A stretch of 60,841 nt of DNA, filler included. It is 4 parts of 4 records of this genome, joined end to end, with 100 filler letters (N's around TTAATTAATTAA, not from the genome) between each part and the next. Parts side by side here need not be neighbours in the genome. Positions count along the whole stretch, not along the records: positions 1 to 16,887 come from DRR723986_17197; 3 more parts are not named here. One strand, written 5' to 3'. The notes beneath the pieces were generated by a model. It had not been told where the DNA came from and searched no databases. It was given only the letters and a program-made list of their open reading frames with translations. Position 1 is the first letter of the stretch. Each line of letters opens with the position of its first letter. A program made the position numbers and the translations under genes. Of the stretch, positions 1 to 38,799 are shown piece by piece.

Positions 1-1
1 A

Positions 2-21
2 GTAGGCACACTCCGTGTGCC
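2..21 (+). repeat. GTAG-type REP-like palindrome (copy 1)
   Basis: GTAG overlapping stem GGCACAC (5-11), loop TCC, GTGTGCC (15-21); at the contig start. Confidence 0.7.
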
Positions 22-57
22 GTTCAAGCGTGCCATCCAACCTGCCGCCCAAACAAA

Positions 58-80
58 GTAGTAAGCACGCTCCGCGTGCC
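58..80 (+). repeat. GTAG-type REP-like palindrome (copy 2)
   Basis: GTAGTAA then GCACGC-TCC-GCGTGC (65-79); same loop as copy 1, with a compensatory A:T to G:C change in the stem. Confidence 0.65.
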
Positions 81-311
81 GTCCGCATGTCAAACACCCC
101 CGATAACGAACCGTAACGCATTCAAAGTCTGCTTCCTGCCAAAGAACCGTTGATGCCAAATGACTTACGAAATCTGTCGGTTGCCTTCACGGGGACTCGG
201 CACAATTTCAGACTTTGTCGTACCCTGGGTTGGCTTCGCGTTTGCTAGGCATTAGATTCATTTCAAGCCAAGCGGCACGGGTACGAAGATTCTCGTAGAT
301 TGAATTTCGAA

Positions 312-1268
312 ATGGGCGATAGCGGAAAAGTAACCATCGATGGTGTTGAGCTGACGCTTGCATCCGAGATGAACAACGAAGCAGAGTGGATTGGCCAGCG
401 CGAGGTGCTTAAGCAGCTACTAGCCTGCTGGTTGGTCGTCGACGAGAGTGATTCGCCGCTAACACCACGTTTGGTCGGGGTTCCGGGCATCGGTAAGACG
501 GCACTTGCGATGAGCGCCGCGCGGCTACGCGAGCAAGATTTGTATGTCTTTCAATGCACCGCGGACACACGTCCGGAAGACTTGTTGGTGACTCCGGTGC
601 TCAGCAGCGGCGGTAACATCTCTTACCATGCGTCGCCACTAGTGACGGCGATGCTGAAAGGGGCGGTTTGCATTCTTGATGAAGGCAACCGCATGAACGA
701 AAAGTCATGGGCAAGCCTGGCGCCTTTGTTTGACCAACGACGTTACGTTGAGTCGATTGTTGCCGGGATTGTGATCAAGGCACATCCAGACTTTAGATGT
801 GCCGTGACCATGAACCAGGATGATTCGACCTACGAGATTCCGGACTACATCCTCAGTCGACTTCAGCCGACCTTGCAACTTGGATTCCCGAACCGACAAG
901 ACGAGTTGGCGATCCTGCAGTACCACCTGCCGTTTGCCGAGCCCGAAATGCTGGCCATGACCGTTGAGTTTCTGCAGCGGTCTCACGAGCTGAATCTTGA
1001 TTTTTCGGCCCGCGACGGACTCAACCTACTTCGTTTTGCGGTCAAGCGGATGGCGCAGGATCCGGAACATCCGGTCAGCAAGGATGACGCCTGGCGTGAG
1101 GCGCTTGAGAAATGCTTGGGAGAGGACGCGGTTAATCTCGATGCGCTGGCGAAGCGAAAGTCATCGGGCGGTCAGGGTGGTATGCCACTTGGTTTGGGAG
1201 ATTTCTTCTTCGACCCTGACGATCCGTTGCACCCAGACTTCGATGGCGACGACGATGACGACTCATGA
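312..1268 (+). CDS. MoxR/AAA_5-type AAA+ ATPase
   Basis: Walker A GVPGIGKT, Walker B ILDEGNR, HPDFR..TMN sensor region, LSRL Arg finger; acidic C-terminal tail; ATG at 312 preferred to TTG at 300; stop overlaps next start (ATGA). Confidence 0.85.
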
Positions 1269-3247
1269 TTGAGCGTCACGACAGCGTGTCCTCCAGCCGT
1301 GTTGACTCGCTTGAGCATCGCCTGACAGTAGCACTCAAGGACGCTTGCAGGTTCCTTGACGCAGAGCGGACTCCTCTGGGACACTGGACCGGGGAGCTTT
1401 CAACGTCCGCACTTTCGACCGCGACGGCCGTTAGCGCGATTTCACAGGTTCTCCAGGCGCATCGCCAAGTTCCAAGTCTAAGCGAATCAGAAGTCGCCAG
1501 CCTGGAGCGGATCGTCCACGCCGGCTGTGCTTGGCTGCTTGAGCACCAGAACGCTGACGGTGGTTTTGGCGATACAAACAAGAGCCACTCAAACATCGCG
1601 ACAACCTTTCTGGTCTTAGCCGCTTGGAGGCTCGCGGGATTTTCCGATGCGGGGCAACCAAGCGATGTCGATTCCCCCGTTTGTGCAGCACAGCGGTATG
1701 TTGACGAACAAGGCAGTTGGGACGGACTGCGGCGTCGATATGGCAAGGACAAGACGTTTGTTGTTCCCATCCTCAGCAACTGTGCCCTGGCTGGGATGGT
1801 AGAGTGGAAGCGGGTGCCACACCTGCCCTTCGAAGCAGCATGGCTACCACAAAAGTACTATCGATTGGCTCGCATGCCAGTCGTCAGCTATGCGGTCCCA
1901 GCACTTGTCGCCATTGGACAGGCAACGTTCTTCCATAACACACCGTTCAATCCTTTGGTTCGTTGCGTCCGTACTGCGGCGAAGAAACCAACTCTCCGTG
2001 TGCTCGACGCGATGCAGCCTGACAGCGGTGGCTATCTAGAAGCAACGCCGCTTACGAGCTTCGTGCTGATGAATCTTGCCAGCATCGAACTCGCCAATCA
2101 CCCCGTTGCAAAGCGATGTTTGAGCTTTCTGGTGGATAGTGTCTTGGAAGATGGTAGTTGGCCGATCGACACAAACCTTGCCACTTGGGTGACCAGTCTC
2201 GGTACGCTCGCCCGCAGCAAAGCTCAAAAGGCCCTAGCGCTTGACGAGCCGAGATGCAGTGACGCTGGAGTCGAGACAACCGAGGCCAGGGAAGAGGTGT
2301 TGCCTGTTGGCGGTCTGGACTGGCTGCTGAGTTGCCAACACTTGACGCGGCATCCCTTCACTGGCGCTGATCCGGGCGGTTGGGGGTGGACCGATTTAAG
2401 TGGCGCTGTTCCCGATTCGGACGACACTCCCGGCGCCATTCTTGCACTCCTTAGTCTCGGGAGTTTGTCGACCCGGCCGATTTTGAATGATCGAAGATTG
2501 CGCGCGACCGCCCGAGGACTAAACTGGCTGGTGCGACTTCAGAATCGCGATGGCGGCATGCCGACTTTCTGCAAAGGCTGGGGGAAACTGCCCTTTGATA
2601 GAAGCGGGACCGACCTGACAGCACATGCCTTGAGAGCGATGAGAGCCGCGAGTGGTCAGCTCGATTCGATGCGACAGCTCGCGGAAGTCCCGACGGATCG
2701 GCAAATCCAGCGTTTCGTTGAGCGGAGCTTTCAATTTATCGCCAAACGCCAACTTGCCGACGGGTCCTGGCTACCACTGTGGTTTGGAAATCAAGATCGA
2801 GAAGATGAAGAGAACCCGGTTTACGGAACCAGCAAGGTACTCCTGGCTTACGCCTCCTACGGACTCAGCCGCAGTCGCGAGGCCCAGCGAGGCATCAAAT
2901 ACCTGAAGAAATGCCAGAACGCAGACGGCGGCTGGGGGGGCGGACCGAGCGTCCGTTACCTTACGAATTCGCCACAATCCTCCGACCTTACCAGCACGAT
3001 CGAAGAAACGGCACTTGCCATCGAGGCACTGTGTGAGTGTGGTGGTCAGCCAGCGACGGATGCAAGTATAATGCGAGGAGTCGAGTGGTTGATTGACCAT
3101 TCGACGCCGGAGGTCCTGGCGAATTCGCAACCGATCGGTTTCTACTTCGCAAAGCTCTGGTACCACGAACGACTTTACCCCGCGATCTTCAGCGTCGCCG
3201 CACTTGCGTCGGCATTGAGTCGATTATGCGCGCACGATGACGCTTGA
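1265..3247 (+). CDS. Squalene-hopene-cyclase-like class II terpene cyclase (divergent)
   Basis: Multiple QW repeats ([35 protein letters not shown]) and catalytic DxDD motif PDSDDT at about 2411-2428; 660 aa, two-domain size. Confidence 0.88.
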
Positions 3248-3331
3248 TCGTTTCGCAAAAAACTCCATGCAGCAGTGATTCCGTCAAGCGCTGCTGGATT
3301 TTCATATACGTAGATTGTCAGGAGCGACAGC

Positions 3332-5251
3332 TTGTCCACTGTACCTACCCAGGCTGGCAAAAATGCCGCCGGCGAAAGTGATGCCGGGACCAACGGTGCG
3401 ACCAATGCCAAAGCGGAGGGAGAACAACCCAAACGCCGGAGCCGTCGTCGAAAGACAAGCCACCTTAAGCTGGTTCCGGAAACGCTTGAGCTGCGAGAGC
3501 GGTTAAAGCAACGATGTGCCGAAGTTGCGAGCAAGCTTGATAGATCGATTCCGATGACCAAGGATGAGATGGAATCGGTCTCTCGCCGCTTGCTCGACGA
3601 GGAGGGGCTGGGCGAGGGCTACGTTGGCTGGATCATGGTGATGCTCAGCGGGGAGTTCTATCGCGATCAAGTCGCTGCAACTGATCCGCGACGCCGACTC
3701 TTTCTCCTGCCACACTGCCTGAAGCACGCAGAAGGCTGCCCCGCAGACTATGACGAATTCGGCATGAACTGCCGCGAATGCGGAGCGTGTAGCATCGCCG
3801 ACTTCCGAACGCTGGCCGAAGACATGGGCTATCGAGTCCTAGTGGCCGAGGGCTCTCCGGTTGTGATGAAAATCATTGTTTCCGGTTACGTGGACGCGAT
3901 TGTCGGTGTCGCCTGTTTGAACGTGCTAGAGAAAGCGATCGACAAGATCCTGCTGGCCGGGATTCCCTGCATGGCCGTGCCGCTGCTATCGAGCGACTGC
4001 CGCAATACGAAGGTTGACGAGCACTGGGTGAGCGAGATGATCCGCACCGAGTCATCTGGCTCAACGCCGAAGACTCGCAGCTACGTCCACTTGCTCCGCG
4101 CGGCGAATGACCTATTCCAAGGTGAGACGTTTAAGCGCCTCGCCCCACGAACAAGAGCTTCTTCTGAGGAAGCTGTCGATCCTGCCGACGACACGGATCT
4201 GATCAGCGGCATTGATCCGATTGCTTCCACCGAAACGCTTGCTCTCGACTTTGCGGCTCGCGGAGGCAAGTACTCACGTCCGTTCATTACGCTGGCTACC
4301 TACGACGCCCTCAGCGGTGGACAGGCAACGGCAGAGAATGGCGACGAAGTGACCTCATCCTACTCCGATGCTGTCCTCCGTTCGGCCATGAGCATCGAGA
4401 TGTTCCACAAGGCCAGCTTGGTCCACGACGATATCGAAGACGACGATCAGTATCGTTACGGCCAACAAACCATGCACCGCAAGTACGGACTTGCGACGGC
4501 GATTAATGTGGGCGACTACATGATTGGTCTGGGATACCGCTTGGTCAGCCGTCACACTGGCGACCTCGGCGCGGACTGTGCTGCTGACATTATGGATTGC
4601 CTGGCCAACGCCCACACCCGATTGGCCGAAGGGCAAGGGGCTGAACTGCTCTGGCGAGACCGTGGCGACCGAGCGCTGACACCGCTGGATGCACTTAAGA
4701 TCTACGCTCTCAAGACGTCACCAGCGTTCGAGGCGGCTCTGTTGACCGGCGCACGCTTGGCTGGCGAGATCGACACTCTGCAAGGGCCACTTCGCGCATA
4801 CGCCCGCAACATTGGAGTCGCTTTCCAGATACTTAACGACCTGGGCGACTGGGATGGTGATGATCACAATAAGCTCTCCGCTGGTGGCGACGTTCTCGGT
4901 GGTCGACCCACACTCCTTTGGGCCCTAGCTTTGCACTCCCTTGCACCCGAGCAGCGGCAGGAGCTGCTCGATTTGGCGGATGACAATACACAGCCAGCAA
5001 GTGAGAAGATTCGCAAGGTACGCAAGCTCTACGAAGCGGCTGGGGCATTCGAGCAAGCTCGACGATTGGTCGACAAACACGAAGCACGTGCACTCGAGGC
5101 CGCCGCCGAAATCGAATCGCCTGCCATGCAGCGATTGCTGATGTACTTGGTCGACACGGTTCTCGAGCGCAGTGAGCCGGCGAGTCCAACGGTGGTGTCT
5201 GTGTCCGGCGTGGGAAGCTTGCCCATCGTTGCCGGCAACAAGACCGCTTAG
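3332..5251 (+). CDS. Fusion of a Cys-rich DUF116-like domain and a trans-polyprenyl diphosphate synthase
   Basis: N-terminal part LPHCL..C..CRECGAC..GVAC..DC; C-terminal part GGKYSRP, FARM HDDIEDDD-RYG, GQGAEL, KTS, SARM-variant FQILNDLGD; start codon uncertain (TTG). Confidence 0.85.
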   Translation: MSTVPTQAGKNAAGESDAGTNGATNAKAEGEQPKRRSRRRKTSHLKLVPETLELRERLKQRCAEVASKLDRSIPMTKDEMESVSRRLLDEEGLGEGYVGWIMVMLSGEFYRDQVAATDPRRRLFLLPHCLKHAEGCPADYDEFGMNCRECGACSIADFRTLAEDMGYRVLVAEGSPVVMKIIVSGYVDAIVGVACLNVLEKAIDKILLAGIPCMAVPLLSSDCRNTKVDEHWVSEMIRTESSGSTPKTRSYVHLLRAANDLFQGETFKRLAPRTRASSEEAVDPADDTDLISGIDPIASTETLALDFAARGGKYSRPFITLATYDALSGGQATAENGDEVTSSYSDAVLRSAMSIEMFHKASLVHDDIEDDDQYRYGQQTMHRKYGLATAINVGDYMIGLGYRLVSRHTGDLGADCAADIMDCLANAHTRLAEGQGAELLWRDRGDRALTPLDALKIYALKTSPAFEAALLTGARLAGEIDTLQGPLRAYARNIGVAFQILNDLGDWDGDDHNKLSAGGDVLGGRPTLLWALALHSLAPEQRQELLDLADDNTQPASEKIRKVRKLYEAAGAFEQARRLVDKHEARALEAAAEIESPAMQRLLMYLVDTVLERSEPASPTVVSVSGVGSLPIVAGNKTA

Positions 5252-5289
5252 CAGCGAATCATTTTCTCCGATTTCCCTTAGCGGTTTCC

Positions 5290-5850
5290 GTGATGAACGA
5301 AAAGCAGCAAGCAGTCGAGCTGGATCTTCTGTTGTCACTCTTCTATGACGATGCATCAGAGCTGGCAAGCTTCACCGCTCGCAATGCGGAAGACTGCCCA
5401 GACGCTTACCGTGAATTACTTGCCCACGAAGCCCACATGACCGTCACGGTCGAGCGCCGCCACGGCTGCGAGGTCGACGTTGAAGTAGTTAGATCCCGCA
5501 CTGAGGGCCAACACTACCTTCGCGAGATTCTGCTGCGACGAAAATCAGATCGACGCGTTGTTCAGTATGGAATCGTCCGCCTAGCACTCGATACTCTGGA
5601 GCCAGTTGTACGAGATGAGATCCTTTCGGGGGAAATACCCCTAGGCCGCGTCTTGATCAATCACGATGTACTCCGCGATGTCCAGTTGCAAGGACTCTGG
5701 CAAACCACCATCGGTCCCGCCTTGGCTTCCTTGATGGAGATTCCCGCGGAAGGCGACACGTACGGCCGAACCGCGCTCATTTTCTGCAACGGTCGCCCAG
5801 GGGTTGAGCTACTGGAGGTCGTTGCGCCGGAGAGCAGCTTCGACGGTTGA
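5290..5850 (+). CDS. Chorismate-lyase (UbiC/UTRA)-fold protein, putative 4-hydroxybenzoate synthase-like
   Basis: MTVTVE..YLREILL..VVQYGIVR..EIPLGRVL..YGRT..ELLEV pattern resembles the UbiC/DUF98 motifs (T..LE, REV.L, PLG..L, R.S, E.F). Confidence 0.6.
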   Translation: MMNEKQQAVELDLLLSLFYDDASELASFTARNAEDCPDAYRELLAHEAHMTVTVERRHGCEVDVEVVRSRTEGQHYLREILLRRKSDRRVVQYGIVRLALDTLEPVVRDEILSGEIPLGRVLINHDVLRDVQLQGLWQTTIGPALASLMEIPAEGDTYGRTALIFCNGRPGVELLEVVAPESSFDG

Positions 5851-5916
5851 TCGCTCGCCATACTAACAACAGCGGGCTGCCTATCATTTCCCCACACCAG
5901 ATGCCTGAGGCGACAG

Positions 5917-6978
5917 TTGGCTGAGATCCCTGCCATTGAGACGGTCGGATTGACAAAGCGTTTCGGTGATTTCACGTCGCTGCTGGACTGTGATCTGACG
6001 ATTCGCCAAGGGCAAATATTTGGTCTACTTGGGCCGAATGGAGCTGGAAAATCGACTCTAATTCGCCTGATCGTCGGCATGTTAACGCCAACTGCCGGGA
6101 CAGGAACGGTTCTCGGCGCGGATATCGTTACTCAGTCACTCTTGGTGAAAAACCGAACTGCCTATCTGCCAGGCGATGCACGGCTTTACAAAGCGATGCG
6201 AGGTCGTCAAGTTACTGAGCTGTTTGCCGGGCTGCGTGGACTGCCCGATTCCAAGCGATCGAATGCGATCGCAGACGCCCTTGAACTCGATCTGTCGCGA
6301 CGCGTCGGCTTGATGTCGACTGGTATGAAACAGAAGCTCGCAATTGCAATAACTCTTGGCAGCAACGCGCCGGTTATGATCTTGGATGAACCCACGGCAA
6401 ATCTAGATCCCGAAATACGACGTGAGACTCTCAATCAAGTTGTTCGGGCACGAGATGAAGGAAGCACCATCCTCCTTTCGTCACATCTGTTTAGCGACAT
6501 TGACGGCACCTGCGATGAAGTGGCGGTGCTGAGAGCTGGGCAGATCATCGCGCGTGAACAACTTCGCGGCGACAACACGACCCGCGTGGTTAACTTCACA
6601 GCCAAGTCCGAAGGCGCGATCACTAAATTGATCGAGTTGTGCGGCTTCGATTCCGCCGGTTCGGCAATTAAAGAGTCGGCTGATGCGTTACCTGACAACT
6701 CTTCTGGTACACAGTCTCGAGAGTTGACTCTCGCCCCGAGCGTTACGGGCATTGTGCGAGCCGAGGAAAATGGCCGACTTCGCGTCACTCTCTACTGTGA
6801 ATCGGAAAGCTACCGCGTCGTTCAGTCGATTTGCCAATTAGGTGAAGATGGAACGATCGATGAATTGAGCGTTCGGACCGTAGGCGTCGAAGCGATCTAC
6901 GATCGTGCAATCCAGGCCGCTGTCCTGTCTGATAGCTCAGACGTCATCGACACCCCGAGCTCGGCGGCAGCACAATGA
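5917..6978 (+). CDS. ABC-2-type exporter ATP-binding protein
   Basis: GPNGAGKS, signature variant MSTGMKQK, ILDEPT, SSH switch. Confidence 0.9.
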   Translation: MAEIPAIETVGLTKRFGDFTSLLDCDLTIRQGQIFGLLGPNGAGKSTLIRLIVGMLTPTAGTGTVLGADIVTQSLLVKNRTAYLPGDARLYKAMRGRQVTELFAGLRGLPDSKRSNAIADALELDLSRRVGLMSTGMKQKLAIAITLGSNAPVMILDEPTANLDPEIRRETLNQVVRARDEGSTILLSSHLFSDIDGTCDEVAVLRAGQIIAREQLRGDNTTRVVNFTAKSEGAITKLIELCGFDSAGSAIKESADALPDNSSGTQSRELTLAPSVTGIVRAEENGRLRVTLYCESESYRVVQSICQLGEDGTIDELSVRTVGVEAIYDRAIQAAVLSDSSDVIDTPSSAAAQ

Positions 6979-7943
6979 CGCGACTCCTTGTTCAGAAGTT
7001 CATTCTCGAATCCAGGTGGTTGCTCGTTGGATGCACTGCCTTGATTTCAACGTTCTTCCTTGCCCGCATTTGGGTTCTCTGCCAGTTTGACCTGGAGCAG
7101 TTTAGGCCGCTTGTTGATCAACTAGATGCATTTAAGCAGTTCCTGCCGTTCCCACTTGAGCAAGTCCTGACTTATCCTGGCAGCCTAGCCGTTTCGTTCA
7201 ATGATCCGGTCGTGATCCTATCAGTACTCGTGTGGTCTGTGGCTCGCGGCACCGACGTGGTCGCTGGGGAACTTGGGCGGGGAACGCTGGAAATACTGCT
7301 AACCCAGCCGGTATCACGCTTACGATTGGTGCTTGTGCATTGGTTGATGTCTGTTCTAGGCCTTGCGATCATCTGCTTCGCTGCGTGGCTGAGTATTTTC
7401 GTGGCCGTGGAAATGAACAGCGTCACTGAAACAGTCAGCAGCTCGGCGACCGTCCGACTTCCACTGATCCCGCTGAACATTCCGATACCGCTGGGCGAGA
7501 CAAGCGAAATTGAAGTTCCGCTTGCCGATAAAGTGGATGCCTACCACTTCATTCAACCTTGCTTGAACCTATTCGGTTTCGGATTCATTGTGCTGTCCGC
7601 AAGTGTTTTCTTCAGTTGCATTGAGCGATTCAGGTGGCGAGCCATCGGGCTGACACTCAGCCTTTACATCGTTCAACTGTTAATTTTCATGCTCAGTCGC
7701 ATTGGTGAAGCGACCAACTGGCTTGGCAACTTGAGCATCCTTGGGTATTACCAACCAGACTGGATCGCTTGGCGTTCTGGGCGAGAGGGTGTATCGTGGA
7801 ATCTTGTTACCGAGACGACGTCGGCCTGGCCCAATTCGATGAGTCCGGTTGTGATGATAGCGACGCTCGTCGTGGTGGGATGTTTGCTCGCGGCATCCGG
7901 AATATTCCTGTTCAAGCGCCGCGACTTACCGGCTCCGTTGTAG
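6975..7943 (+). CDS. ABC-2-type exporter permease
   Basis: Multiple TM segments, AGELGRGTLEILLTQPVSR motif, C-terminal FKRRDL; ATGA overlap with the ATPase. Confidence 0.88.
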   Translation: MTRLLVQKFILESRWLLVGCTALISTFFLARIWVLCQFDLEQFRPLVDQLDAFKQFLPFPLEQVLTYPGSLAVSFNDPVVILSVLVWSVARGTDVVAGELGRGTLEILLTQPVSRLRLVLVHWLMSVLGLAIICFAAWLSIFVAVEMNSVTETVSSSATVRLPLIPLNIPIPLGETSEIEVPLADKVDAYHFIQPCLNLFGFGFIVLSASVFFSCIERFRWRAIGLTLSLYIVQLLIFMLSRIGEATNWLGNLSILGYYQPDWIAWRSGREGVSWNLVTETTSAWPNSMSPVVMIATLVVVGCLLAASGIFLFKRRDLPAPL

Positions 7944-8075
7944 TCTTGTGCCTGGATATCACTCAAATCCCAACGTGTAGGGAGTGAGGTTCCAGCCTTC
8001 GGCGGCGTCCGACAGTTCGTATAGTTCGCCCGCTGTTTCCAATCCATCAAAACCACCTTCGAAAAGTTTAGAACC

Positions 8076-8525
8076 ATGAAGGGCACGTACGGCATCATTG
8101 CTGCAATTTGTTTCTTTGCGGCATCTGGATGTTCCAGCCAACTTGAGACCTATCCCGTGAAGGGGATGGTGGAGTTTGAAAACGGGCGACCAGTTGTGCT
8201 GGGCACGGTCGAATTCTTGTCGTTGGATCACAAACTGAACGCCAGCGGCACTATTCAGGAAGACGGTACGTTTGAGCTAACGACGTTTGAAGAGGGCGAC
8301 GGTGCAGTCGCAGGAAAGCACAAGTGTGTGGTCATTCAAATGGTGATTGGAGAAGACATCACTCGGAGTCATCGAGCAAGTACCGTTGGCGTAGTGGATC
8401 CGCGCTATGGTTCCTACGACACCTCTGGTTTAGACGCCACCATTACCGAAGGCAAGAACGAAGTAAAACTCATCGTCCGCGGCATGAAACGCCAACCCGC
8501 CCCTGGTGAATCACACTCCCACTGA
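8076..8525 (+). CDS. Planctomycete-type lipoprotein (carboxypeptidase-regulatory-like beta domain)
   Basis: Lipobox ASGC; YPVKG.V, G.I..DG.F.L.T..GDGAV.G.HK, P.Y....SGL pattern typical of planctomycete lipoproteins. Confidence 0.75.
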   Translation: MKGTYGIIAAICFFAASGCSSQLETYPVKGMVEFENGRPVVLGTVEFLSLDHKLNASGTIQEDGTFELTTFEEGDGAVAGKHKCVVIQMVIGEDITRSHRASTVGVVDPRYGSYDTSGLDATITEGKNEVKLIVRGMKRQPAPGESHSH

Positions 8526-8572
8526 GGTCATCATTTTCCGAATGGTATCGACATCGTTGCCGAATCGAATCG

Positions 8573-9496
8573 TTACGGAATGAAGTTCTTGAGGTAGCGG
8601 TAGCTTTGTCGAAGGGAGTCTTTCCTGGATTCAAGGGAACCTTCGTAGGCTCTATCTTCAACTTCGACGCAGACTGCTCCGGTGTATCCGTTATCAAGTA
8701 ACACCGAGAAGAACTTGCCCCAATTCACTTCGCCCAGGCCAGGCAACTTGGGCGTGTGATACTCCAGCGGATGTGCCAAGATCCCCACGTCGTTCAGCTT
8801 CTCACGGTCTAGCCGAACGTCTTTTGCATGAGCATGAAAGATCCTGTCCGAGAAATCTCGGAGAGGTGCGAGGTAGTCCATTTGCTGCCAAACAAGATGC
8901 GATGGGTCGTAGTTCAGGCCAACGTTCACGGACCCCAGGTCATTGAACAGACGTCTCCAAATCTTTGGTGAAGTGGCAATGTTCTTGCCGCCCGGCCATT
9001 CATCTTCACTGAATAGCATTGGGCAATTTTCAATACCGAGTTTCAGGTCGAGCGAATCAACTTTCTCCACAATCGGACGCCATGAATCCAACAGACGCGG
9101 CCAGTTGTCTTCGACGCTCTTTGTGAAATCGCGACCGATGAAAGTATTCAGATTGGCGACACCGAGCGCCTTTGCAGAGTCGCATAGCCGCAATAGATGC
9201 TCTCGCGCGATTCTGGCCTCTTCAGCTACTGGTGAGAGTGGGTTAGGGTAGTAGCCCAACGCGCTAATCGCTACACCGGTGTCGGCTACAGTTTTCTGAA
9301 TTCCGGCCAACCCCTTTTCATCGAGTTTGTCTGCATCGATGTGCGTTACACCTGCGTAGCGTCGTTCGGCCTTGCTTGGCGGCCAACACATAACTTCGAC
9401 GCAATCAAATCCGACTTCAGCGGCAAAGGTGAAAAGCTCGTCAAAACTGAGCTCAGGAAGGATAGCGCTTGCAAATCCAAGTTGAATCACTGACAT
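8573..9496 (-). CDS. Sugar phosphate isomerase/epimerase (AP-endonuclease-2 TIM barrel)
   Basis: [26 protein letters not shown] and VEVED metal-binding motifs. Confidence 0.85.
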
Positions 9497-9559
9497 CTCC
9501 GATGCGGGTTCTCGAGTATCGCGTCTCTTGGCACGTGCAGCCTAGCTGTGCCAGAAGAC

Positions 9560-10417
9560 TTAAGTCCGTAGGTGGCTGATGGGTACGTAGAATTTACGGT
9601 ACCGTTTCCCATCGTCATAGAGCTGACCGGTTTCGTCGAGCACCAAGATCGTCGCTCGGCGCGTAATACGATTAACCGTTCCAATACGCTCAACTCCCTC
9701 GTGAGTGAATCGCACTCTCGTGCCAACTCGAATGTTGAACTTGCGTTCGGCCCGCTCCTGCTGAGTGATTAGATCATGTTTGTGTTCGGTGTGTCCGAAC
9801 AAGCGGCCAGCGATGGACTGGAACCGAGGAGCGGCACAGCAGCTATCGTCCCACACGAGCATTTCGCACAGATGAATCAGCTCGTGCTCCATAATACGCT
9901 GCATCGCTTGCATTCGATTCGTGCACAGCATGCCAGTCACACGAATGGGACGCTGGAGGTCGCTGAATGTTTGGAACAGTAGTGTGGCTGAAAGGACGAT
10001 TTCATATTGCCAGGTCTTCTGGCCAGTCTGTCGATCAGTGTGCGTGGTTCGGACAGTCTTGCCACCCGCACTCGTCATTCGTTTTGACCAACGGAATTGC
10101 ATTCCAAAATGGCCCGCAACCGAGAGCAAGTTACCGCCGAAGAAATAGCGATCGTAGAGCTGCGCCATGTTTTTTAGGTCGCGGCCGGTAACCGACGAAA
10201 AATTTGTCGATTCCATCGAACGCGAAGTTGAAAGAACTGACCGACCGATGCGGTAGCACTGCTCACGCCGGCGAGTGTCAGCGATGCGCCCGTGAGAGAC
10301 CCATTCCTCGAGTTCCGTTATTTGCCGAGCGATTTCGGCAGGGAGTGTATCCCTACGCCTCGGCGCTTGCTTTGAAACTCTACCCCGTCCTGGGTGCCCA
10401 ACTGTGCCTGCCATCAC
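9560..10417 (-). CDS. SprT-like zinc metalloprotease with C-terminal SH3/KOW-like beta domain
   Basis: WSKRMTSAGG, YEIVLS, HELIH; C-terminal VGTRVRF..GTVNRITRRATI. Confidence 0.7.
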   Translation of the reverse strand: MMAGTVGHPGRGRVSKQAPRRRDTLPAEIARQITELEEWVSHGRIADTRRREQCYRIGRSVLSTSRSMESTNFSSVTGRDLKNMAQLYDRYFFGGNLLSVAGHFGMQFRWSKRMTSAGGKTVRTTHTDRQTGQKTWQYEIVLSATLLFQTFSDLQRPIRVTGMLCTNRMQAMQRIMEHELIHLCEMLVWDDSCCAAPRFQSIAGRLFGHTEHKHDLITQQERAERKFNIRVGTRVRFTHEGVERIGTVNRITRRATILVLDETGQLYDDGKRYRKFYVPISHLRT

Positions 10418-11106
10418 TTCTCCAAGTATTTGGCCATCGTACTAGCAGCGATCGTCGCACGACGAAGCAAGATAAGATCCACGCCAGCTAGCACCGGTGC
10501 AGCCAACTGATCCAGTACAGATTAGAAAAGTCTACTGGGGCAGTTGTCGCGCATTCCATTCTACGAAAAATCGTCAGCACATTTCCAGGCGATAGTTCGC
10601 CTTATAGCTGTTTTCCGAAAAGCCCACGGCGGGCGGCGTCCCATTGTTGACTTCCGTCATGCCAGTCGTTAGCAAGCCGACAGGCCAAACCGCGTGGGTT
10701 CCTAGTTTGCGCAGCTTCGCTCACTACTCGCCGGGGATTATTGTGACGCGGCGAAACGGAACTTCTTCCCTCATCTGGCAGTTGCTTCTGTTGACAGCGG
10801 CAGCCAATCTCTAATGCTTTTAATGATGCGGACACCGCTGGAGAATATCGCCTCGCCGAGGCGATAATGTAAATGCACCAGGTCCAGCGTAAGGGCTGGC
10901 GGAAATTCGCGGGCTGGCGGATGTTCGCCACCACGCAAGAAATTACGAGGCCTGAAGATCGCGACCAGCATAAAGTGTTCGGACTTTGGTCGTTTGCTGA
11001 CACCTGAAAGCCCCTTGTTGGCAGACGTTTGCCGATCTTGAAATTTGTCGGCTTCGTTTCATTGAGTCCCCACGCCACACACAACTCAGCACGGAAAGTT
11101 TTACCT

Positions 11107-12495
11107 GTGGATTCGCAACATTTTGACGTTATTGTCATCGGTACAGGTCCTGGCGGTGAAGGTGCCGCAATGCAAGCTGCTAAAGAGGGCAAGCGGGTTG
11201 CAATCTTCGAACGGCACACACGAATCGGTGGCGGTTGCACTCACTGGGGAACTATACCGAGTAAGGCACTTCGATTTTCGATCTACTCGATTATGGAGGC
11301 CATCAACAACCCAGTCGTCAAATCTTTGGGTGTCCGACCGAGCCCCTCACTCCGCCAACTTCGCCAAAGTAGTCAGTCCATTATTTCCAAGCAGGAGACG
11401 ATGCGGCAGACGTTCTACGAACGTAATCATGTACCGGTGATCAATGGCGAAGCGAAGTTCTTGGATGCAAACACGGTCCAGATTGACGATGGGACGAAGT
11501 ATACCGCTGAGAAGTTTGTTATCGCCGCTGGCTCTCGCCCCTTCCGCCCGCCCCATGTCGATTTCGACCACCCGTGTATCTACGACAGCGACACGATTCT
11601 TGATCTCGTCGATCGTCCGCAGTCGATTACCGTCTACGGTGCAGGTGTCATAGGTTGTGAATACGCGTCCATGTTTCGCAACTTAGGGATCAAGGTAAAC
11701 CTGGTCAACACACGCAGCAAGCTGCTTGAGTTCCTGGACGACGAGATTATTGACGCACTTAGCTATCACTTGCGTGACCAAGGTGTCCTCATTCGGCACA
11801 ACGAGCAGTTTGATCGAATCGAGGGCCGAGATGATGGAGCGGTCTTGTACCTTCAAAGCGGTAAACAGATTAAGACCGACATCGTCCTTTGGGCCAATGG
11901 CCGAAGCGGCAATACGGAGAACCTGGGGCTAGAGAATATTGGTGTTGAACCGACCAGCCGCGGTCACTTGAAAGTCAACGAACACTTCCAAACAGAGTGC
12001 GAGAACGTTTACGCGGTCGGCGATATCATTGGCTTCCCATCGCTCGCCAGTGCAGCTTACATGCAAGGTCGCTCGGCAGCCCTGCATTTGACCAACAGCA
12101 GCACCGAGCGTTGCATGCAGTTGGCCGACATTCCTGCTGGGATCTACACCAGTCCTGAGATCTCTTGTATTGGACAGACGGAACGAGAACTGACCGAAAA
12201 GAAAATTCCCTACGAAGTGGGCCACTCGCAGTTCAAGAGTCTTGCGCGAGCACAGATCATTGGCCGAACGGTCGGCATGCTGAAACTGCTTTTTCACCGA
12301 GAAACCTTGGAAATTCTCGGCGTCCACTGCTTCGGAAATAACGCATCCGAGATCGTGCACATTGGACAGGCGATCATGAAACAGCCAGCTCCGTACAACA
12401 CGATCGAGTACTTTATCAACACGACGTTCAACTATCCAACAATGGCTGAGGCCTACCGAGTCGCGGCTCTCAACGGATACAACCGATTGTTCTAA
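11107..12495 (+). CDS. sthA: Soluble pyridine nucleotide transhydrogenase
   Basis: [54 protein letters not shown] at 11107 is the likely start. Confidence 0.93.
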
Positions 12496-13889
12496 CCTTG
12501 TAGCGTGTTGCCATTATTCGGACCACGAATTGCCTCGCGAATGCAGGCGGCAGTCGTGAGTGCAGCATTGACGGCATAGCCCGCAGTCATCGCGTAGGCG
12601 ATACGCAACAAGGTGGTCTCGACGGGGATTGTGAAACTGCACACCAGCATGACGATAGCTGCAGCAACTCGCGTCCAAACGCCATAACTTGCTCGGTCAA
12701 TGCCTCGCAAGAAGCCGTCGCCGACCAGTGCGCAACCGTTTGCTGCCATGGCGAACATTAGCACCCGGGATATGCCGAGGATGCCTTTGAATTCTTCGCC
12801 GAACAGAAAGTGCAACAGCTCGGGCAGCACAAGCAAGATTGCCGCCAACGACACTGCCTGAAATGCGATGACCGCGAACGTCAGCCCTGCAATCTTGCGA
12901 GCTCCGGCAGAACACAACTCCCGGGCGCTACGGAAAGAGTAGAGAGCAAACGTGTGCGGTGCTACCAGCAACATCGTTGCCGCGGGAACGGCTGTGACGT
13001 AGAAACCATAGTCTTCGAAAGAGACCATCCACAGCAGCAAGAAATTGCCAAGCCGGTCAAAGAGATCTCCTGCCAGAACCGCAATTGCATCAGAACGACC
13101 GTCGCGTATTAGTGCCTTCGCACTTGGACTGCCGGATCCGAACCAAACGCGGTTGTCACTGATGTAAAGGAAGAACAGCAGAGCGATGCCGGACGACACC
13201 ACGGTCAGCAGCGCGATCAAGCCAAGAGACCTGATTCCACCCAGCGTCAGCATGGCGACGAAGATTGGAAATACGGCCGCAGCGAACACGCGACTGAGGT
13301 TGTACCGATTGAATGCTCCGCGTCCGTGGTCCACCGCCTGCGAAGCGAGACGCATGTGCTCAAGTGGTAGCATGCAAGCACACAGGCAGCACCACGGCAG
13401 AACATGAGTTTTATCGGCAGGCACGCCCAACACACTCATTGCAATAGCGGCTAACAGTGAGAAGCAACCTGTGATCACTCCGCATCGAATCGCCGATCTC
13501 TGTAACCCTCCATAGTCGGCCGACTGAGTCGCAGCAGCTCTCGCGATCGAATAGAGTGTCCCAAGCAAACCGGTGTAAAGCATCGTTTGCGTATAGAACA
13601 TGGCCGTCGCGTACTCTCCGCGTCCAGTTGGCCCCAGCAGACGGGCCAGCAGGATGGCGTGAAGTGCTTGCAAGCCGAAGACCGCAAACGAGCTACCTAC
13701 GCTGGAGCCCAGTCCTAGTAAACGCCCCCTCAAGCTCGGTGGTTGCAACTTGCCAGACGGCATTACCTGCGCAGCAGCTTTGGACTCGTTCGTAGTTTCC
13801 TCGTTTTCGTCCATTGGGATCATCTGAGGAGGACAGTCGTTGCTGCGTTGCCAAAGTTGCGTAGTGTGAGCCGCAGGCGGGTTGTACAC
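12492..13889 (-). CDS. Wzx/MATE-like polysaccharide flippase
   Basis: [15 protein letters not shown] motif and about 12 hydrophobic segments; true start probably downstream of 13889. Confidence 0.75.
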
Positions 13890-14146
13890 ATCGTGGTTAG
13901 CAAGCCGATACGAGTCGATTGTGTTGGGAGCAAACAGCCCCTAAACCACCAAGCGAATAGTGCGATGTCCTGACAACCGGCATAACCACTCCGCGCCGAA
14001 CGCAGCGACTGACGATTATCACGGGATTGCCAACGCGTAACATGACAATTCCAGCCCAGCGTAGCCCAACTCTGTTCGAGATGTTCGGCGCGTGCCGATC
14101 TAAAGGGTAGCTGGAAATTGTCAAAATCAAAGTGTTGGTGCTGAGT

Positions 14147-14893
14147 ATGTCCGAATCCATCTTACGAAAACCCATTACTGGCCTACTCTTGCTTGGCGGT
14201 GCGATCGGTGGGCCATACGTGGTTTATGAAACCGACATTGGACGCTCTGCTCAGCAAGCACTGACGCCTGGTGAGGTCCAGTCGACAGGGGTTGCACCCG
14301 CTGGGCGGTTCACATCGACTACATCTACGCAGAATTTGCCAGGTCCCTCTGCCCAGCTTCAACCCAATCACGTGCTCAACGGCGGAGGCGTACCGACTGC
14401 AAACGCTCCAGTCAGCTCGCTAGGGGAAGTTGCCCGATTCGATATCACGCCTGGATGGATAACATCACGCTTTCCCAGAGTGTCGACTGTGGTTGGCAAT
14501 GAGTACTTGGATGGCATGCGAGTGCCGCTGGTAACGGGCACCACACCATCGGACTTGGCTGGCACATTGACCTACTATTTCGACCGTTACCAAAGACTGC
14601 AACGGATCACCATCCACGGTGTCACCGGTGATCCAAGTCGGTTTATCGGAGAAGTCCAGCAAGGCTACAAGCTTGAGCAACAGCCTTCGCTCGGCGGGAA
14701 TCTCTATCTTCTTAATTGGAACGGTAAAGCGACGAGTGTTCTTCGAGTTGCACCGGCGGCAATTATTCGCGCCGATGCACCTTATTCAAGATTTGATCTC
14801 TTCCTGGAGCTGAACCAGCCGGGTTTGCAGTTTGGGTTGAGTCCGGAAGCTCAGGGCATGCTTAATGCCGGTCGTGCCGCTCGACGCTGGTAG
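14147..14893 (+). CDS. Planctomycete conserved hypothetical protein (DUF6690-like)
   Basis: N-terminal anchor, low-complexity linker, then RFDITPGWI..RVPLVTGT..DLAGTLTYYFD. Confidence 0.6.
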   Translation: MSESILRKPITGLLLLGGAIGGPYVVYETDIGRSAQQALTPGEVQSTGVAPAGRFTSTTSTQNLPGPSAQLQPNHVLNGGGVPTANAPVSSLGEVARFDITPGWITSRFPRVSTVVGNEYLDGMRVPLVTGTTPSDLAGTLTYYFDRYQRLQRITIHGVTGDPSRFIGEVQQGYKLEQQPSLGGNLYLLNWNGKATSVLRVAPAAIIRADAPYSRFDLFLELNQPGLQFGLSPEAQGMLNAGRAARRW

Positions 14894-14930
14894 ACAATTC
14901 GCCTTCCAATGGGCGGCAAGCGGTAGGCAT

Positions 14931-15710
14931 CTAGTTGCGTCGGAAAGCGAATTGCCCGGCATCAATGAGACTCCCGTCGTCTCGGTGTGGAAGATAAAAA
15001 TCGACCTGGCTGTCACCAAAGATGCGGAACTTCACACCGTGCCGCCAAAGTTCGAAGTACGCCGCAACCGCTTCGTCTCCACCAACTTCTAGTTCTTCAC
15101 TGTTTGCCCTTGCGAGCGGCCAGCGAACAAACTCACGCAGCCAACCATCGCAGGCGAGGTAATACAGCGGTTCGGCCAGTTGGTATCCGAGGGAGGCGTC
15201 GGCGTGTCGTGACGCCAACACCTCAGGAACGGAATTGGTTAGCAGACGCATCAACAGTGACTGCTCCTCAACGCGCCGCGGGTGCTTTGGAGCCTTGCCT
15301 TCTAGAATTCGCACCTTGGGCTCACCGATACCGCTCGCCTGCTCAGCAATCAACTCAAACGCCTGATCCTGCATGCTTGAACTCGCAGCTCGCAGCAGCG
15401 CCAGAGCGCTGCTGACGAACTTCTCGGCATACGTCTGGGCCGCGGAAGCGAGAAATGTTGGTGGACTCCTGACGATGAAGTAGGCGTCTTTCATTCCGTC
15501 GGATCGTCGACCTGCCCCGGTTGCCCGGAAGACGCGTTCAAGTCGGTGCCGCAGCTCAGCCCCACCCTCGACAGCATCAAGAAACTCGCACTTACCAAGA
15601 CCATCTTGCCGAAACGCCTGAAACAATCCCATCGGCGACTCCTCCAGTGCCGCACGCTCCGCTTCGCTGCTTGAGGCGGCATCCAACAACTGGTCGAAAA
15701 TTTGGGTCAT
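14931..15710 (-). CDS. Hypothetical protein
   Basis: 259-aa ORF with protein-like composition; no recognised motif. Confidence 0.6.
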   Translation of the reverse strand: MTQIFDQLLDAASSSEAERAALEESPMGLFQAFRQDGLGKCEFLDAVEGGAELRHRLERVFRATGAGRRSDGMKDAYFIVRSPPTFLASAAQTYAEKFVSSALALLRAASSSMQDQAFELIAEQASGIGEPKVRILEGKAPKHPRRVEEQSLLMRLLTNSVPEVLASRHADASLGYQLAEPLYYLACDGWLREFVRWPLARANSEELEVGGDEAVAAYFELWRHGVKFRIFGDSQVDFYLPHRDDGSLIDAGQFAFRRN

Positions 15711-15930
15711 CGTTGCAGATTTCAGGTAAGAGTTAATTCTTCGAAGGCGTCAGCTCTAGCAGCCTCCGTGACATTGTATGAAGCTGGCGATTGGCCTTTT
15801 GGCTTTGAAGTTGCGGTTTCACAGGTGCACTCGCAGCCGAAAAGCGGTATGATTTCGGGCCGAAGCCGGTCTTAGTCAGTACTCGGTGACCATTCGGAAA
15901 CGGTAACCATTCAGTAACAAAGTAAACTGC

Positions 15931-16476
15931 ATGCGTTCTTTGACAGTAACACTGCTTATCAGCCTGATGATGACATCGCCAGCACTTGCTGACGACAAAC
16001 CAGAAGCGGTCGTTGGCAAGCCAGCGCCAGACTTCGAAGTCACCGGCATTGATGGCAAGAAATTTAAACTTTCCGACCGTATTGGCAAGAAGAACATCGT
16101 CGTGATGTTCAGCAGAGCCTATTGGTGACCGTTCTGCATGCGGCAGCTGGTCGAGCTGCAATCGAATGCGGAAGAGTTTAAAGCGGCGGATGCCGAGCTG
16201 ATCTTCGTTTTCCGCGAAGAAAGCAACGGCGTTGAAGCCCTGAAGAACATTAAACGAAAGTACAAGACGACGTACACTTTGTCCCTGGACTTGGATAAGA
16301 AGTCCTCCGGTGCATACAGCCCGAAACGCGGCACCTTCGACAACTACGTGATCGACAAGAAGGGCGTTGTGCGCAAGGTCGTCGACGGATCTTTGAGAAC
16401 ACGTGCCAAGTCAAAGCAATTGCTTGATACGCTCAAAGCCATCAACGCTGAAGAGAAGAAGAAAGCCGCGAAGTAA
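15931..16476 (+). CDS. Secreted AhpC/TSA (peroxiredoxin-like, thioredoxin-fold) selenoprotein with UxxC
   Basis: ORFs 15931-16128 and 16138-16476 are in the same frame; TGA 16126-16128 reads ..FSRAYW-U-PFC-MRQLVELQ; signal peptide and VGKPAPDFEV..DGKKFKLSD redoxin N-terminus. Confidence 0.9.
16143..16159 (+). promoter_or_regulatory. Putative bacterial SECIS hairpin
   Basis: GCAGCT-GGTCG-AGCTGC; the apical loop starts with G, 21 nt after the UGA. Confidence 0.75.
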
Positions 16477-16858
16477 TCCGCTGCCACTTACTCTGCGGCT
16501 GTGTTGTCTTTGACGTTACGCGCTTGTTCTTTGAAGGGCTCAAGCTCCTCTCGTGAACGCTCCGCGACTACCGTGGAGTTGACAGGGCCAGTCTTGGCCC
16601 GCGACGTTAATCGCCATCATCTAAACACACGTCACCGCTCGCTTTGGGAGAGGGCGGGCGTCAGCTCGGGAGAGTGTAGAGCGTGCAGGCGACGGCGTCA
16701 GTGTCTCAGGCAGTTTTACTGCTTAACCGTTGGCAATCTCCTAGCACCTAGATTCGGCTGAACGCGATCCTCCGATCAATGGCCACAAAGATGAAAATAT
16801 TTCTTTGCCGAGAGCCTTCGGTGAATACGAGACGATTCAGAGTTTCGGCCTACATTAA

Positions 16859-16881
16859 GTAGCACGGCTCTCCGAGCCGTG
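16859..16881 (+). repeat. GTAG-type REP-like palindrome at contig end
   Basis: GTAG-CACGGCTC-TCC-GAGCCGTG, perfect 8-bp stem with the same TCC loop as the copies at 1-80. Confidence 0.72.
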
Positions 16882-16887
16882 GGGCTG

Positions 16888-16987
16888 NNNNNNNNNNNNN
16901 NNNNNNNNNNNNNNNNNNNNNNNNNNNNNNNTTAATTAATTAANNNNNNNNNNNNNNNNNNNNNNNNNNNNNNNNNNNNNNNNNNNN
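16888..16987. other. Artificial contig spacer
   Basis: N-run, TTAATTAATTAA (stops in all six frames), N-run; base composition changes across it. Confidence 0.98.
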
Positions 16988-36589: not shown

Positions 36590-37429
36590 GTGACGGAGTT
36601 AGAGAAAAATATAACTTTTTGCCGGGATATGGTGCAACAGGATGACCGTGCGCGTTATGAAACGGTTTTGTTTGCCCCGCGATCACAACAAGCATCCTTA
36701 TGGGCCTTGTATGCTTTCAATCAGGAAGTGGCTAAAACCCGAGAAAATGTTACTGAGGCAGCTTTGGGCGAAATCAGGTTGCAGTGGTGGCGAGATGTTG
36801 TTGAGGAACTACGCTCTGGCAATGTGCGTGAGCACCCTGTTGTAGCGGCTCTTGCAGAAATTAACCCCTCTGAGCCGGTGTTTAAGTTGATGGATAACTT
36901 AATTGATGCCAGAGGGCGTGATTTATACGACGAAGGTCCTGCAGATCAGACCGCATTAGAAGATTATGCTGATTCTGTAGGGGGCACATTATGCGAGGCC
37001 GCATTTAGGTTGTGTTATAATGATGAACCAACGAATCAGCACATAAACCTGCTGAGGAAATGCGGTAGTGCTTGGGCTATGTTAGGGTTGGTAAGAGCTA
37101 TTCCATTCCATTGGGCCAGTAACCGCAATTATGTGCCAGGTGATAAGGGCAAGGCCTCTTTGGCGACGACCGACGCTGAAAAAATGTACGCTCTAGCAAA
37201 AGACTCAATTGATCAGATGATCAGTTTCTCTATTGCGCAGCTTGCTGAAATGAAAAGTACATCAAGCTCATTACCAAAAAACAGTCAGCATCTGTTACTA
37301 CTTAATGTGCAGCTAGAGTTATACATTGCTGCGCTAGACCGGGCAGGGAATAACCCATTCAAAGTAAAAGAACCATCTACCTTAAGGCGCTTGTTAAAGC
37401 TAATGAAGGCGACCGTTTTGGGGCATTAG
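36590..37429 (+). CDS. Squalene/phytoene synthase family protein (NDUFAF6-like)
   Basis: ALYAFNQEVA, GEIRLQWWRD, HPVV.AL; lacks canonical DDxxD motifs. Confidence 0.85.
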   Translation: MTELEKNITFCRDMVQQDDRARYETVLFAPRSQQASLWALYAFNQEVAKTRENVTEAALGEIRLQWWRDVVEELRSGNVREHPVVAALAEINPSEPVFKLMDNLIDARGRDLYDEGPADQTALEDYADSVGGTLCEAAFRLCYNDEPTNQHINLLRKCGSAWAMLGLVRAIPFHWASNRNYVPGDKGKASLATTDAEKMYALAKDSIDQMISFSIAQLAEMKSTSSSLPKNSQHLLLLNVQLELYIAALDRAGNNPFKVKEPSTLRRLLKLMKATVLGH

Positions 37430-38723: not shown

Positions 38724-38799
38724 CTCTTGATCACGCTGTACCGGCAGTCTAAGCAGACCATAGTAAATGCTTTGCCTCAACTTTAGTTGGAATTGGTTT

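Follow-up and report, generated by a model that had tools for sequence, protein, structure and literature searches.

The closest described relatives of the locus reported here are the 'SHC-like' proteins defined by Santana-Molina 2020 (PMC7306690), a group related to squalene-hopene cyclase (SHC) for which a nearby polyprenyl synthase was noted and a non-squalene precursor was proposed. McShea 2025 (PMC12324236) describes a clade of 'unknown function' that holds the same cyclases and has a sister clade that includes meroterpenoid cyclases, and the trees in both papers put the SHC-like clade outside SHC. A fusion of DUF116 to a polyprenyl synthetase (Psta_0175) was noted by Makarova 2015, in which DUF116 was predicted to function in electron transfer. 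The locus lies within a 60,841 nt stretch of DNA, hereafter the window, and was initially annotated as a candidate undescribed terpenoid/meroterpenoid system of six genes. Since the clade, the nearby polyprenyl synthase, the non-squalene hypothesis, and the DUF116 fusion had all been published, 'undescribed' does not apply. We find that two of the six genes, a class II terpenoid cyclase (1265-3247) and a DUF116-trans-isoprenyl diphosphate synthase fusion (3332-5251), are, by their joint conservation across phyla, probably the functional core of the locus and one instance of a widespread terpenoid module.

The locus does not differ in kind from the SHC-like clade. Both occur within Planctomycetota, Verrucomicrobiota, and Bacteroidota, retain the catalytic residues, and have a polyprenyl synthase nearby. 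To that description we add the identity of the synthase as a DUF116 fusion, a triad of cyclase, synthase, and radical S-adenosylmethionine (SAM) enzyme, and a wider network of gene adjacencies. Further additions are a lineage-specific UbiC-like gene and, for the synthase of planctomycetes, an N-for-D change; the AAA and ABC genes we exclude as incidental. Neither 'radical SAM' nor 'chorismate' appears in the supplement text of PMC7306690 (text only; figure S10 is an image). In our literature search no paper assigned a product to the SHC-like clade or connected it with a radical SAM or chorismate-lyase gene.

SHC itself (TIGR01507; PDB 1gsz/2sqc) shares with the window cyclase a two-domain alpha/alpha toroid, QW-type repeats, and an aligned DxDD proton donor. 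Unlike SHC, the window-type cyclase co-exists with a true SHC, occurs in genomes without a detected squalene synthase, and is paired with its own prenyl synthase. The sesquarterpene route of Bacillus (HepS/HepT, YtpB, SqhC) resembles the pathway proposed here in its dedicated trans-prenyl synthase, head-to-tail chain, SHC-family cyclase, and non-hopanoid polycycle. It differs from the window-type module, which has a DUF116-fused synthase, a radical SAM partner, and no YtpB-like gene that we could see. The window cyclase also scores only 36.4 bits against a cut-off of 500 on TIGR04277 (listed as tetrahymanol synthase), which we take to be the former SqhC/tetraprenyl-beta-curcumene cyclase model. 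MstE of the merosterol pathway and the epoxy-polyprenyl cyclases Lon15 and AtoE carry out class II cyclization of a head-to-tail prenyl chain, sometimes one attached to a benzoate-type ring, and these cyclases are reported in the literature as the sister clade of the SHC-like clade. MstE is a single-domain protein and uses DxD (McShea 2025, PMC12324236). In contrast, the window cyclase has two domains and DxDD, and no UbiA prenyltransferase or epoxidase is linked to it.

The cyclase also falls far below the other curated cut-offs for squalene and oxidosqualene cyclases. It scores 113.5 bits against 431.1 on the SHC equivalog TIGR01507, 126.5 against 322.7 on TIGR01787, and 86.9 against 851 on TIGR03463. 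The nearest solved relative, the SHC of A. acidocaldarius, matches at 50.7 bits only. The catalytic motif is intact: PDSDDT starts at residue 382, DSDD (residues 384-387) aligns with the DVDD (DxDD) of the A. acidocaldarius enzyme, and PDxDDT is kept in 73/73 aligned sequences of the family. The family is large, with 8000 of the 8000 scored candidates passing E 1e-5 and 590 relatives in species-representative genomes. One Bremerella genome encodes a true SHC (656.8 bits) approximately 20 kb from a paralog of the window type, and genomes of Rubripirellula, two Parabacteroides, and Labilibaculum carry the paralog only, with no true SHC. By these comparisons the cyclase is an SHC paralog and not a true SHC. 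This agrees with the initial annotation, which had a non-SHC cyclase with an intact DxDD tied to its own prenyl synthase, a tie that we find in Planctomycetota, Verrucomicrobiota, and Bacteroidales. The Bremerella gene with 656.8 bits on the SHC equivalog model is located at G002:C30:225603-227600 in Bremerella sp. JC770 (Pirellulales). A hopanoid preprint (2026) reports no SHC in Pirellulales and cautions that SHC profiles also catch other cyclases.

To define the conserved neighbors we compared the best 80 of the 590 cyclase relatives confirmed in species-representative genomes. Open reading frames (ORFs) of these loci were called by a simple script and clustered by BLASTP, and the window proteins were also run by tblastn. 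Linkage counts were restricted to loci with at least 4.5 kb on either side of the cyclase (both-flank loci). Phyletic profiles were drawn from one even sample of 151 Planctomycetota, from 151 Bacteroidales, and from a random sample of 150 other Bacteroidota. The best 80 loci belong to Planctomycetota, Verrucomicrobiota and Kiritimatiellia, Bacteroidales, and one Abditibacteriaceae metagenome-assembled genome (MAG).

The synthase fusion is linked to the cyclase in 15/17 planctomycete, 1/2 verrucomicrobial, and 21/23 other (mostly Bacteroidales) both-flank loci. In the Planctomycetota sample the cyclase occurs in 39/151 genomes and the fusion in 30/151, and 29 of the 30 genomes with the fusion also have the cyclase. 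The remaining genes are distributed differently. The gene for a 186-aa protein that follows the synthase is beside the module in 14/17 planctomycete both-flank loci and 0/25 of the others. Only one of the 17 planctomycete both-flank loci has the AAA ATPase beside the cyclase, and only one has the ABC permease there; in both cases it is L001, the closest relative of the window locus, from an uncultured MAG of Pirellulaceae. No both-flank locus of the other groups has either gene. Across all 80 loci the permease is again present in L001 only, as is a close homolog of the ABC ATPase adjoining the cluster; ABC ATPase matches in other loci are generic ABC proteins with 25-40% identity. AAA orthologs (50-74% identical) occur in 24/151 Planctomycetota, 13 of which carry the cyclase, and in none of them are they near it. 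The full six-gene arrangement thus recurs in 1/80 loci, and the linkage of the AAA and ABC genes in L001 alone makes the six-gene operon a conserved pair in a local setting of recent date. The AAA and ABC-2 genes are recent neighbors outside the conserved system and may be co-transcribed with it here. The initial annotation treated the six genes as one system and named neighborhood conservation as the check. That check upholds the cyclase-fusion pair across phyla and not the six-gene set.

The fusion joins a Cys-rich DUF116 domain (residues ~94-237) to a trans-isoprenyl diphosphate synthase domain (residues ~307-563). The synthase half matches PF00348 at 152.5 bits against a gathering cut-off of 27, and its first DDxxD is intact. 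This first Asp-rich motif is DDIED in the window; FHKASLVHDDIED is conserved family-wide, and the FHKASLVHDDIxD surroundings are kept across phyla. The synthase half reaches no NCBIfam equivalog cut-off (best, 145.2 against 450). Among the sub-cut-off scores, models of short- and medium-chain synthases give 145-95 bits, and octaprenyl, solanesyl, and heptaprenyl models give 80-64, so that by profile score the enzyme would resemble C15-C25 synthases more than C35-C45 synthases. The small residues Ala and Ser precede the first Asp-rich motif. Small residues at this place are found in long-chain synthases as well as type III geranylgeranyl diphosphate synthases, and therefore they leave the chain length unfixed.

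DUF116 (PF01976) scores 135.5 bits against a cut-off of 25 and has seven invariant Cys in 53 aligned sequences. In a structure model of the domain, helices at the N-terminus lead into a generic Rossmann/receiver-like domain. Foldseek returned nothing for it at E ≤ 1e-3, and a wider structure search yielded a best Z of 7.5 with all hits generic Rossmann/receiver folds, so no specific fold relative was found. The model agrees with an HHpred note on DUF116 in Makarova 2015. The cysteines suggest that DUF116 probably binds a metal or an iron-sulfur (Fe-S) center. Selenocysteine was considered for the DUF116 fusion, which shows an apparent in-frame TGA in seven genomes, and was rejected, as the TGA is the true C-terminal stop in 5/5 genes checked.

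A third partner of the module is encoded outside the window and hence was beyond the view of the initial annotation. Strong matches (E ≤ 1e-94) to a SPASM-like radical SAM protein occur in 30/151 Planctomycetota, and all 30 genomes have the cyclase. Ten weaker matches (33-37% identity) come from genomes that lack the cyclase and apparently represent another paralog. The radical SAM gene often adjoins the synthase and cyclase in Planctomycetota. In the Bacteroidales sample, cyclase, fusion, and radical SAM occur in the identical 9/151 genomes, with the genes 55 kb apart in one of them. Besides the query's own genome, none of the three was found in the 150 other Bacteroidota (0/150), a result that shows little beyond rarity.

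The usual Bacteroidales order is a Fer4 protein, the radical SAM protein (SPASM/NirJ-like), the DUF116-synthase, a small alpha/alpha-toroid protein, the cyclase, and PQQ/BamB-like beta-propellers. Often encoded downstream are an NHL-like protein, a ferredoxin, a NapH-like polyferredoxin, and a NuoEF-like protein. None of the Bacteroidales partner proteins reaches a curated NCBIfam cut-off. The small toroid protein (cluster c3) was rejected as a second cyclase, with the D.DD motif in 0/32 sequences. Clusters of at least ten genes that include the cyclase are present at L031 (5559-21062) and at approximately 20 other Bacteroidales loci. The carriers are Parabacteroides, Alistipes, Tannerella, Prevotella, and Labilibaculum, and in addition to several beta-propellers the clusters encode an NHL/ScyF-like protein, a NapH-like polyferredoxin, and a NuoEF-like flavoprotein.

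No homologs of these extended partner genes, the radical SAM gene included, were found in the window. Five genomes, that of L001 among them, have the window-like order of cyclase, isoprenyl diphosphate synthase, and UbiC-like gene, and in each the radical SAM gene is located on another contig. The same five genomes also encode a HemN-like radical SAM protein on other contigs. In the L001 genome the HemN-like gene is part of an operon with genes for an iron-containing alcohol dehydrogenase (Fe-ADH), a beta-propeller, a GcvH-like protein, and a Fer4 protein. This operon directly adjoins the cyclase in Bremerella, and the cyclase of Gemmataceae and Schlesneria has the GcvH-like and Fer4 genes immediately upstream of it. 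None of the proteins of the operon, from Fe-ADH to Fer4, is at a curated family cut-off. Examples of the conserved planctomycete operon (Fe-ADH, PQQ/BamB-like propeller, HemN-like, GcvH-like, Fer4) are at L097 (G156:C70; 5083-10460), L053 (1958-7374), and L087 (6873-12633). In three genomes (G100, G075, and G013), the HemN-like gene is followed by genes for the UbiC-like protein and a CmlS/QhpG-like flavin enzyme instead of the GcvH-like and Fer4 genes.

The 186-aa UbiC-like protein has 38 invariant columns across 19 sequences and no Pfam match among these 19 members at E up to 10, PF04345 and PF01947 included. Its AlphaFold (AF2) model is confident, with a mean local confidence (pLDDT) of 91.2. 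Foldseek matches the model to the DUF98 protein AF1396 (2nwi; E 1.5e-8, TM 0.79 on target) and to E. coli chorismate lyase (1jd3/1fw9/1g1b; E 4e-5 to 2e-4), and UTRA effector domains also match. In an hhalign comparison with E. coli UbiC the match is weak (E 6e-4, probability 28%), with LREILL, PLGR, and GR..L..G.P aligned. By the model, the protein has the chorismate-lyase/UTRA fold, and the chorismate-lyase fold of the initial annotation was correct. R78 in its LREILL is invariant and, in the same 28% probability alignment, is paired with the Arg in the LREILL of E. coli UbiC, which we take to be the substrate-binding R76. Relatives of the protein are named 'chorismate-pyruvate lyase' by IMG and 'hypothetical' by NCBI. 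It is like UbiC and DUF98 proteins (PDB 1g1b, 2nwi) in its fold and, in the weak alignment, in these three motifs and the invariant Arg. It is unlike them in having no PF04345/PF01947 match, no adjacent ubiA, and a HemN-like radical SAM gene as its commonest neighbor.

Homologs of the 186-aa protein occur in 17/151 of the sampled Planctomycetota, of which 13 carry the cyclase; the HemN-like radical SAM gene is present in every one of the 17. The UbiC-like gene adjoins the HemN-like gene in 11/17 of these genomes and the synthase in 1/17. Adjacency to the synthase is confined to the window's own lineage, and elsewhere the gene is next to the HemN-like gene. Genes for a CmlS/QhpG-like flavin enzyme and an Fe-ADH are found alongside it in G013 and in G100 and G075, the last two with the same ORF order; in G013 an aldehyde dehydrogenase gene is there as well. 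From these adjacencies, the UbiC-like gene probably belongs to a wider pathway. Its tie to the cyclase is by a chain of adjacency, from the UbiC-like and HemN-like genes to the GcvH-like and Fer4 genes and then to the cyclase, and is not a universal link.

No UbiA-type prenyltransferase was found in the 80 clustered loci. The UbiA matches in carrier genomes are heme O synthase, EboC-like, or others unlinked to the system; in G013, for example, the gene of this family that is second downstream from the UbiC-like gene is heme O synthase (292 bits). At five UbiA loci in two carrier genomes no system genes adjoin, with the exception of one unannotated ORF. The caveat of the initial annotation, that no UbiA was visible and the aromatic link was speculative, therefore stands: a meroterpenoid link is speculative because no UbiA gene is linked at the loci examined. 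The unannotated ORF is beside an EboC-like UbiA gene (138 bits, below cut-off) at L100 5319-7560 (G001:C242). It resembles a 300-aa Bremerella protein encoded between Fer4 and radical SAM genes, a tenuous link. The 300-aa protein has a weak, sub-threshold match to cytochrome c'.

The window is made up of four contigs joined by three linkers of the form N44-TTAATTAATTAA-N44, at 16888-16987, 48489-48588, and 55103-55202. The GC contents of the four pieces are, in order, 0.55, 0.457, 0.557, and 0.692, and differences of this size suggest that the pieces are possibly not all from one organism. The joins also cut genes. A QueA match covers only approximately the first 208 of 346 profile positions, and one ABC ATPase matches its own profile from position 376 onward only. 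From the linkers and the genes broken at the joins, the cluster-bearing contig is therefore 1-16887 (16.9 kb). The features are listed in Table 1. The six genes are co-oriented and tightly packed as the initial annotation had described them, with ATGA overlaps at 1265-1268 and 6975-6978 and remaining gaps of 84, 38, and 66 nt (from mechanically called start codons). Pfam supports the labels of the AAA+, class II cyclase, DUF116-prenyl synthase, and ABC genes. A further ORF downstream has a 68% identical copy in the same position in L001 and no Pfam or NCBIfam match, and may close the local operon.

Table 1. Features of the cluster-bearing contig and one related gene elsewhere, in positions of the whole window.
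Feature	Position	Strand	Evidence and remarks
AAA_5 ATPase, MoxR/GvpN-like	300-1268	+	Pfam AAA_5 69.9 bits; local neighbor, not a conserved member
Divergent class II (SHC-like) terpenoid cyclase, 660 aa	1265-3247	+	Pfam SQHop_cyclase_C 111.8 bits, SQHop_cyclase_N 54.4 bits
DUF116-trans-isoprenyl diphosphate synthase fusion, 639 aa	3332-5251	+	Pfam DUF116 135.5 bits, polyprenyl_synt 152.5 bits
UbiC-like protein (chorismate-lyase/DUF98 fold), 186 aa	5290-5850	+	No Pfam match; structure model
ABC transporter ATPase, DrrA-like	5917-6978	+	Pfam ABC_tran 91.4 bits; TIGR01188 170.5 against 312.45; local neighbor
ABC-2 type permease	6975-7943	+	Pfam ABC2_membrane_2 40.1 bits; local neighbor
149-aa ORF, lipoprotein-signal-like N-terminus (AASGC)	8076-8525	+	Translation; starts 132 nt after ABC permease
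Artificial linker, N44-TTAATTAATTAA-N44	16888-16987	.	End of cluster-bearing contig
Squalene/phytoene synthase family gene (SQS_PSY)	36590-37429	+	Second contig, 45.7% GC; Pfam 120.4 bits; HpnD 69.5 against cut-off 278.6

A Pfam profile search gave no match to SQS_PSY or UbiA (PF01040) on the cluster contig. The initial annotation stated that no squalene genes are on the contig, which holds for 1-16887 and fails for the window as a whole, since the window is four contigs and an SQS_PSY gene is on the second. The missing squalene genes carry little weight because the cluster contig spans 16.9 kb only and this SQS_PSY gene is on another piece. A chorismate mutase gene is located at 38767-39111 on the same second contig.

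The reading that we favor, and consider fairly probable, is that the fusion makes a head-to-tail prenyl diphosphate, that the DxDD cyclase cyclizes this chain or a derivative of it, and that radical SAM and Fe-S partners encoded elsewhere tailor the product without oxygen. Each catalytic step, like the product's nature, is proposed by us from the observed gene content, motifs, fold, linkage, and co-occurrence. In the fusion, the trans-prenyl diphosphate synthase half would build the head-to-tail chain. The cyclase would protonate the terminal double bond via the middle Asp of its invariant DxDD and fold the chain, or a derivative, into a polycycle that is neither hopene nor sterol. In most genomes the cyclase and fusion would work with the specific SPASM-like radical SAM enzyme and with a protein of the 4Fe-4S type, which the window's lineage would encode elsewhere in the genome.

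Several points weigh against this reading. The second Asp-rich motif of the window fusion is NDLGD (residues 502-506; window 4835-4849), and NDLxD replaces DDxxD in the window and in 21/21 planctomycete orthologs, whereas 30/31 orthologs from Bacteroidales/other and Verrucomicrobiota (one sequence) have DDxxD and one has DDLEE. GK[YH]SRP is likewise found in the window and all 21 planctomycete orthologs where the Bacteroidales/other and verrucomicrobial sequences read GKRWRP. In the alignment, NDLxD and GK[YH]SRP together are a lineage-wide change in the metal-/diphosphate-binding motifs. Most of the fusion family also has RYG for the usual RRG, with two exceptions (RHG and RNG). Because of NDLxD and RYG, the synthase may depart from a standard chain-elongating enzyme. 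The association of the three genes is also incomplete: 10/39 cyclase-bearing planctomycete genomes lack the fusion at E ≤ 1e-60, and 9/39 lack a strong radical SAM match. The radical SAM cut-off of E ≤ 1e-94 was chosen after the scores, which have a clear gap, were seen. Related genomes in the counts are not independent samples. Of the ten verrucomicrobial/Kiritimatiellae loci, eight are too short to judge and one has the fusion. Lastly, the window cyclase fits the 'SHC-like / unknown function' clade by shared features and not by placement in a tree.

An unlikely alternative is the six-gene meroterpenoid system, in which the UbiC-like protein supplies 4-hydroxybenzoate, the prenyl chain from the fusion is attached to this ring, cyclization is MstE-like, and the product leaves by ABC-2 export aided by the AAA+ protein. 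The fold and motifs of the UbiC-like protein, the invariant Arg aligned to UbiC R76, and the IMG name are all consistent with this, as are the meroterpenoid cyclases in the published sister clade and the tight packing of the genes in the window and L001. The CmlS/QhpG-like flavin enzyme, of a type that acts on aromatic rings, also accompanies the UbiC-like gene in other genomes. However, the prenyl transfer would need a UbiA, and none is on the cluster contig, in the 80 loci, or near system genes of two genomes. The UbiC-like gene is also absent from beside the module at all 25 Bacteroidales/Verrucomicrobiota both-flank loci and adjoins the synthase in a single one of its 17 carrier genomes, and the AAA and ABC genes are next to the cyclase in L001 only. 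We give still less credence to the cyclase as a second cyclase of squalene, or a squalene derivative, with the fused synthase merely feeding farnesyl diphosphate to HpnCDE-type synthesis elsewhere. This is very unlikely, even though alkene protonation by DxDD is SHC-type chemistry. SQS_PSY genes are present in planctomycete carriers of the module (three matches in G001, two in G002), and a weak HpnD-like gene is on another contig of the assembly. In contrast, no SQS_PSY gene was found in 3/3 Bacteroidales genomes carrying the module (two Parabacteroides and Labilibaculum), and these three therefore favor a non-squalene substrate. Scores far below the SHC, oxidosqualene cyclase (OSC), and TIGR04277 cut-offs, the true SHC beside the paralog in Bremerella, and published trees that place the clade outside SHC also argue against squalene.

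The partner genes suggest a third possibility, that of a redox or cofactor pathway built on radical SAM enzymes, ferredoxins, a GcvH-like carrier, and PQQ-like beta-propellers, in which the toroid binds or modifies a prenylated cofactor (e.g., one that is quinone-like) and no membrane or secreted terpenoid lipid is made. Most of the conserved neighbors are indeed redox proteins (radical SAM cluster c4, Fer4 cluster c5, the GcvH-like, HemN-like radical SAM, NapH-like, and NuoEF-like proteins, and the beta-propellers), and electron transfer is the role predicted for DUF116 by Makarova 2015. Nonetheless, nothing in the neighborhood identifies a cofactor, and the invariant PDxDDT and intact first Asp-rich motif argue for real cyclase and prenyl-transfer chemistry. 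We regard such a pathway as improbable, and retain the two-enzyme terpenoid module with radical SAM and Fe-S partners as the preferred explanation.

The SHC-like clade is among the largest groups of terpenoid cyclases without a known substrate or product, and McShea 2025 (PMC12324236) points out that its characterization would constrain the evolution of triterpenoid cyclases. The comparisons here narrow the relevant gene set to cyclase and DUF116-prenyl synthase, together with the co-occurring radical SAM enzyme and its Fer4 protein, and leave out the AAA+ and ABC genes. Cultured carriers exist in Rubripirellula, Bremerella, Labilibaculum, and Parabacteroides. Tricyclic terpanes are described as having no known source (PMC9247107), and cheilanthanes as having no characterized pathway (bioRxiv 10.64898/2026.01.29.702649). 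It is conceivable, if a long shot, that the triad is an O2- and squalene-independent route to head-to-tail polycyclic polyprenoids of the tricyclopolyprenol type in the Planctomycetes-Verrucomicrobia-Chlamydiae (PVC) group and anaerobic Bacteroidales, and so the missing source of sedimentary and oil cheilanthanes, with a chorismate-derived head group perhaps added in Pirellulaceae. The product of the module could be a new bacterial membrane polycycle, and might be a source of 'orphan' sedimentary biomarkers.

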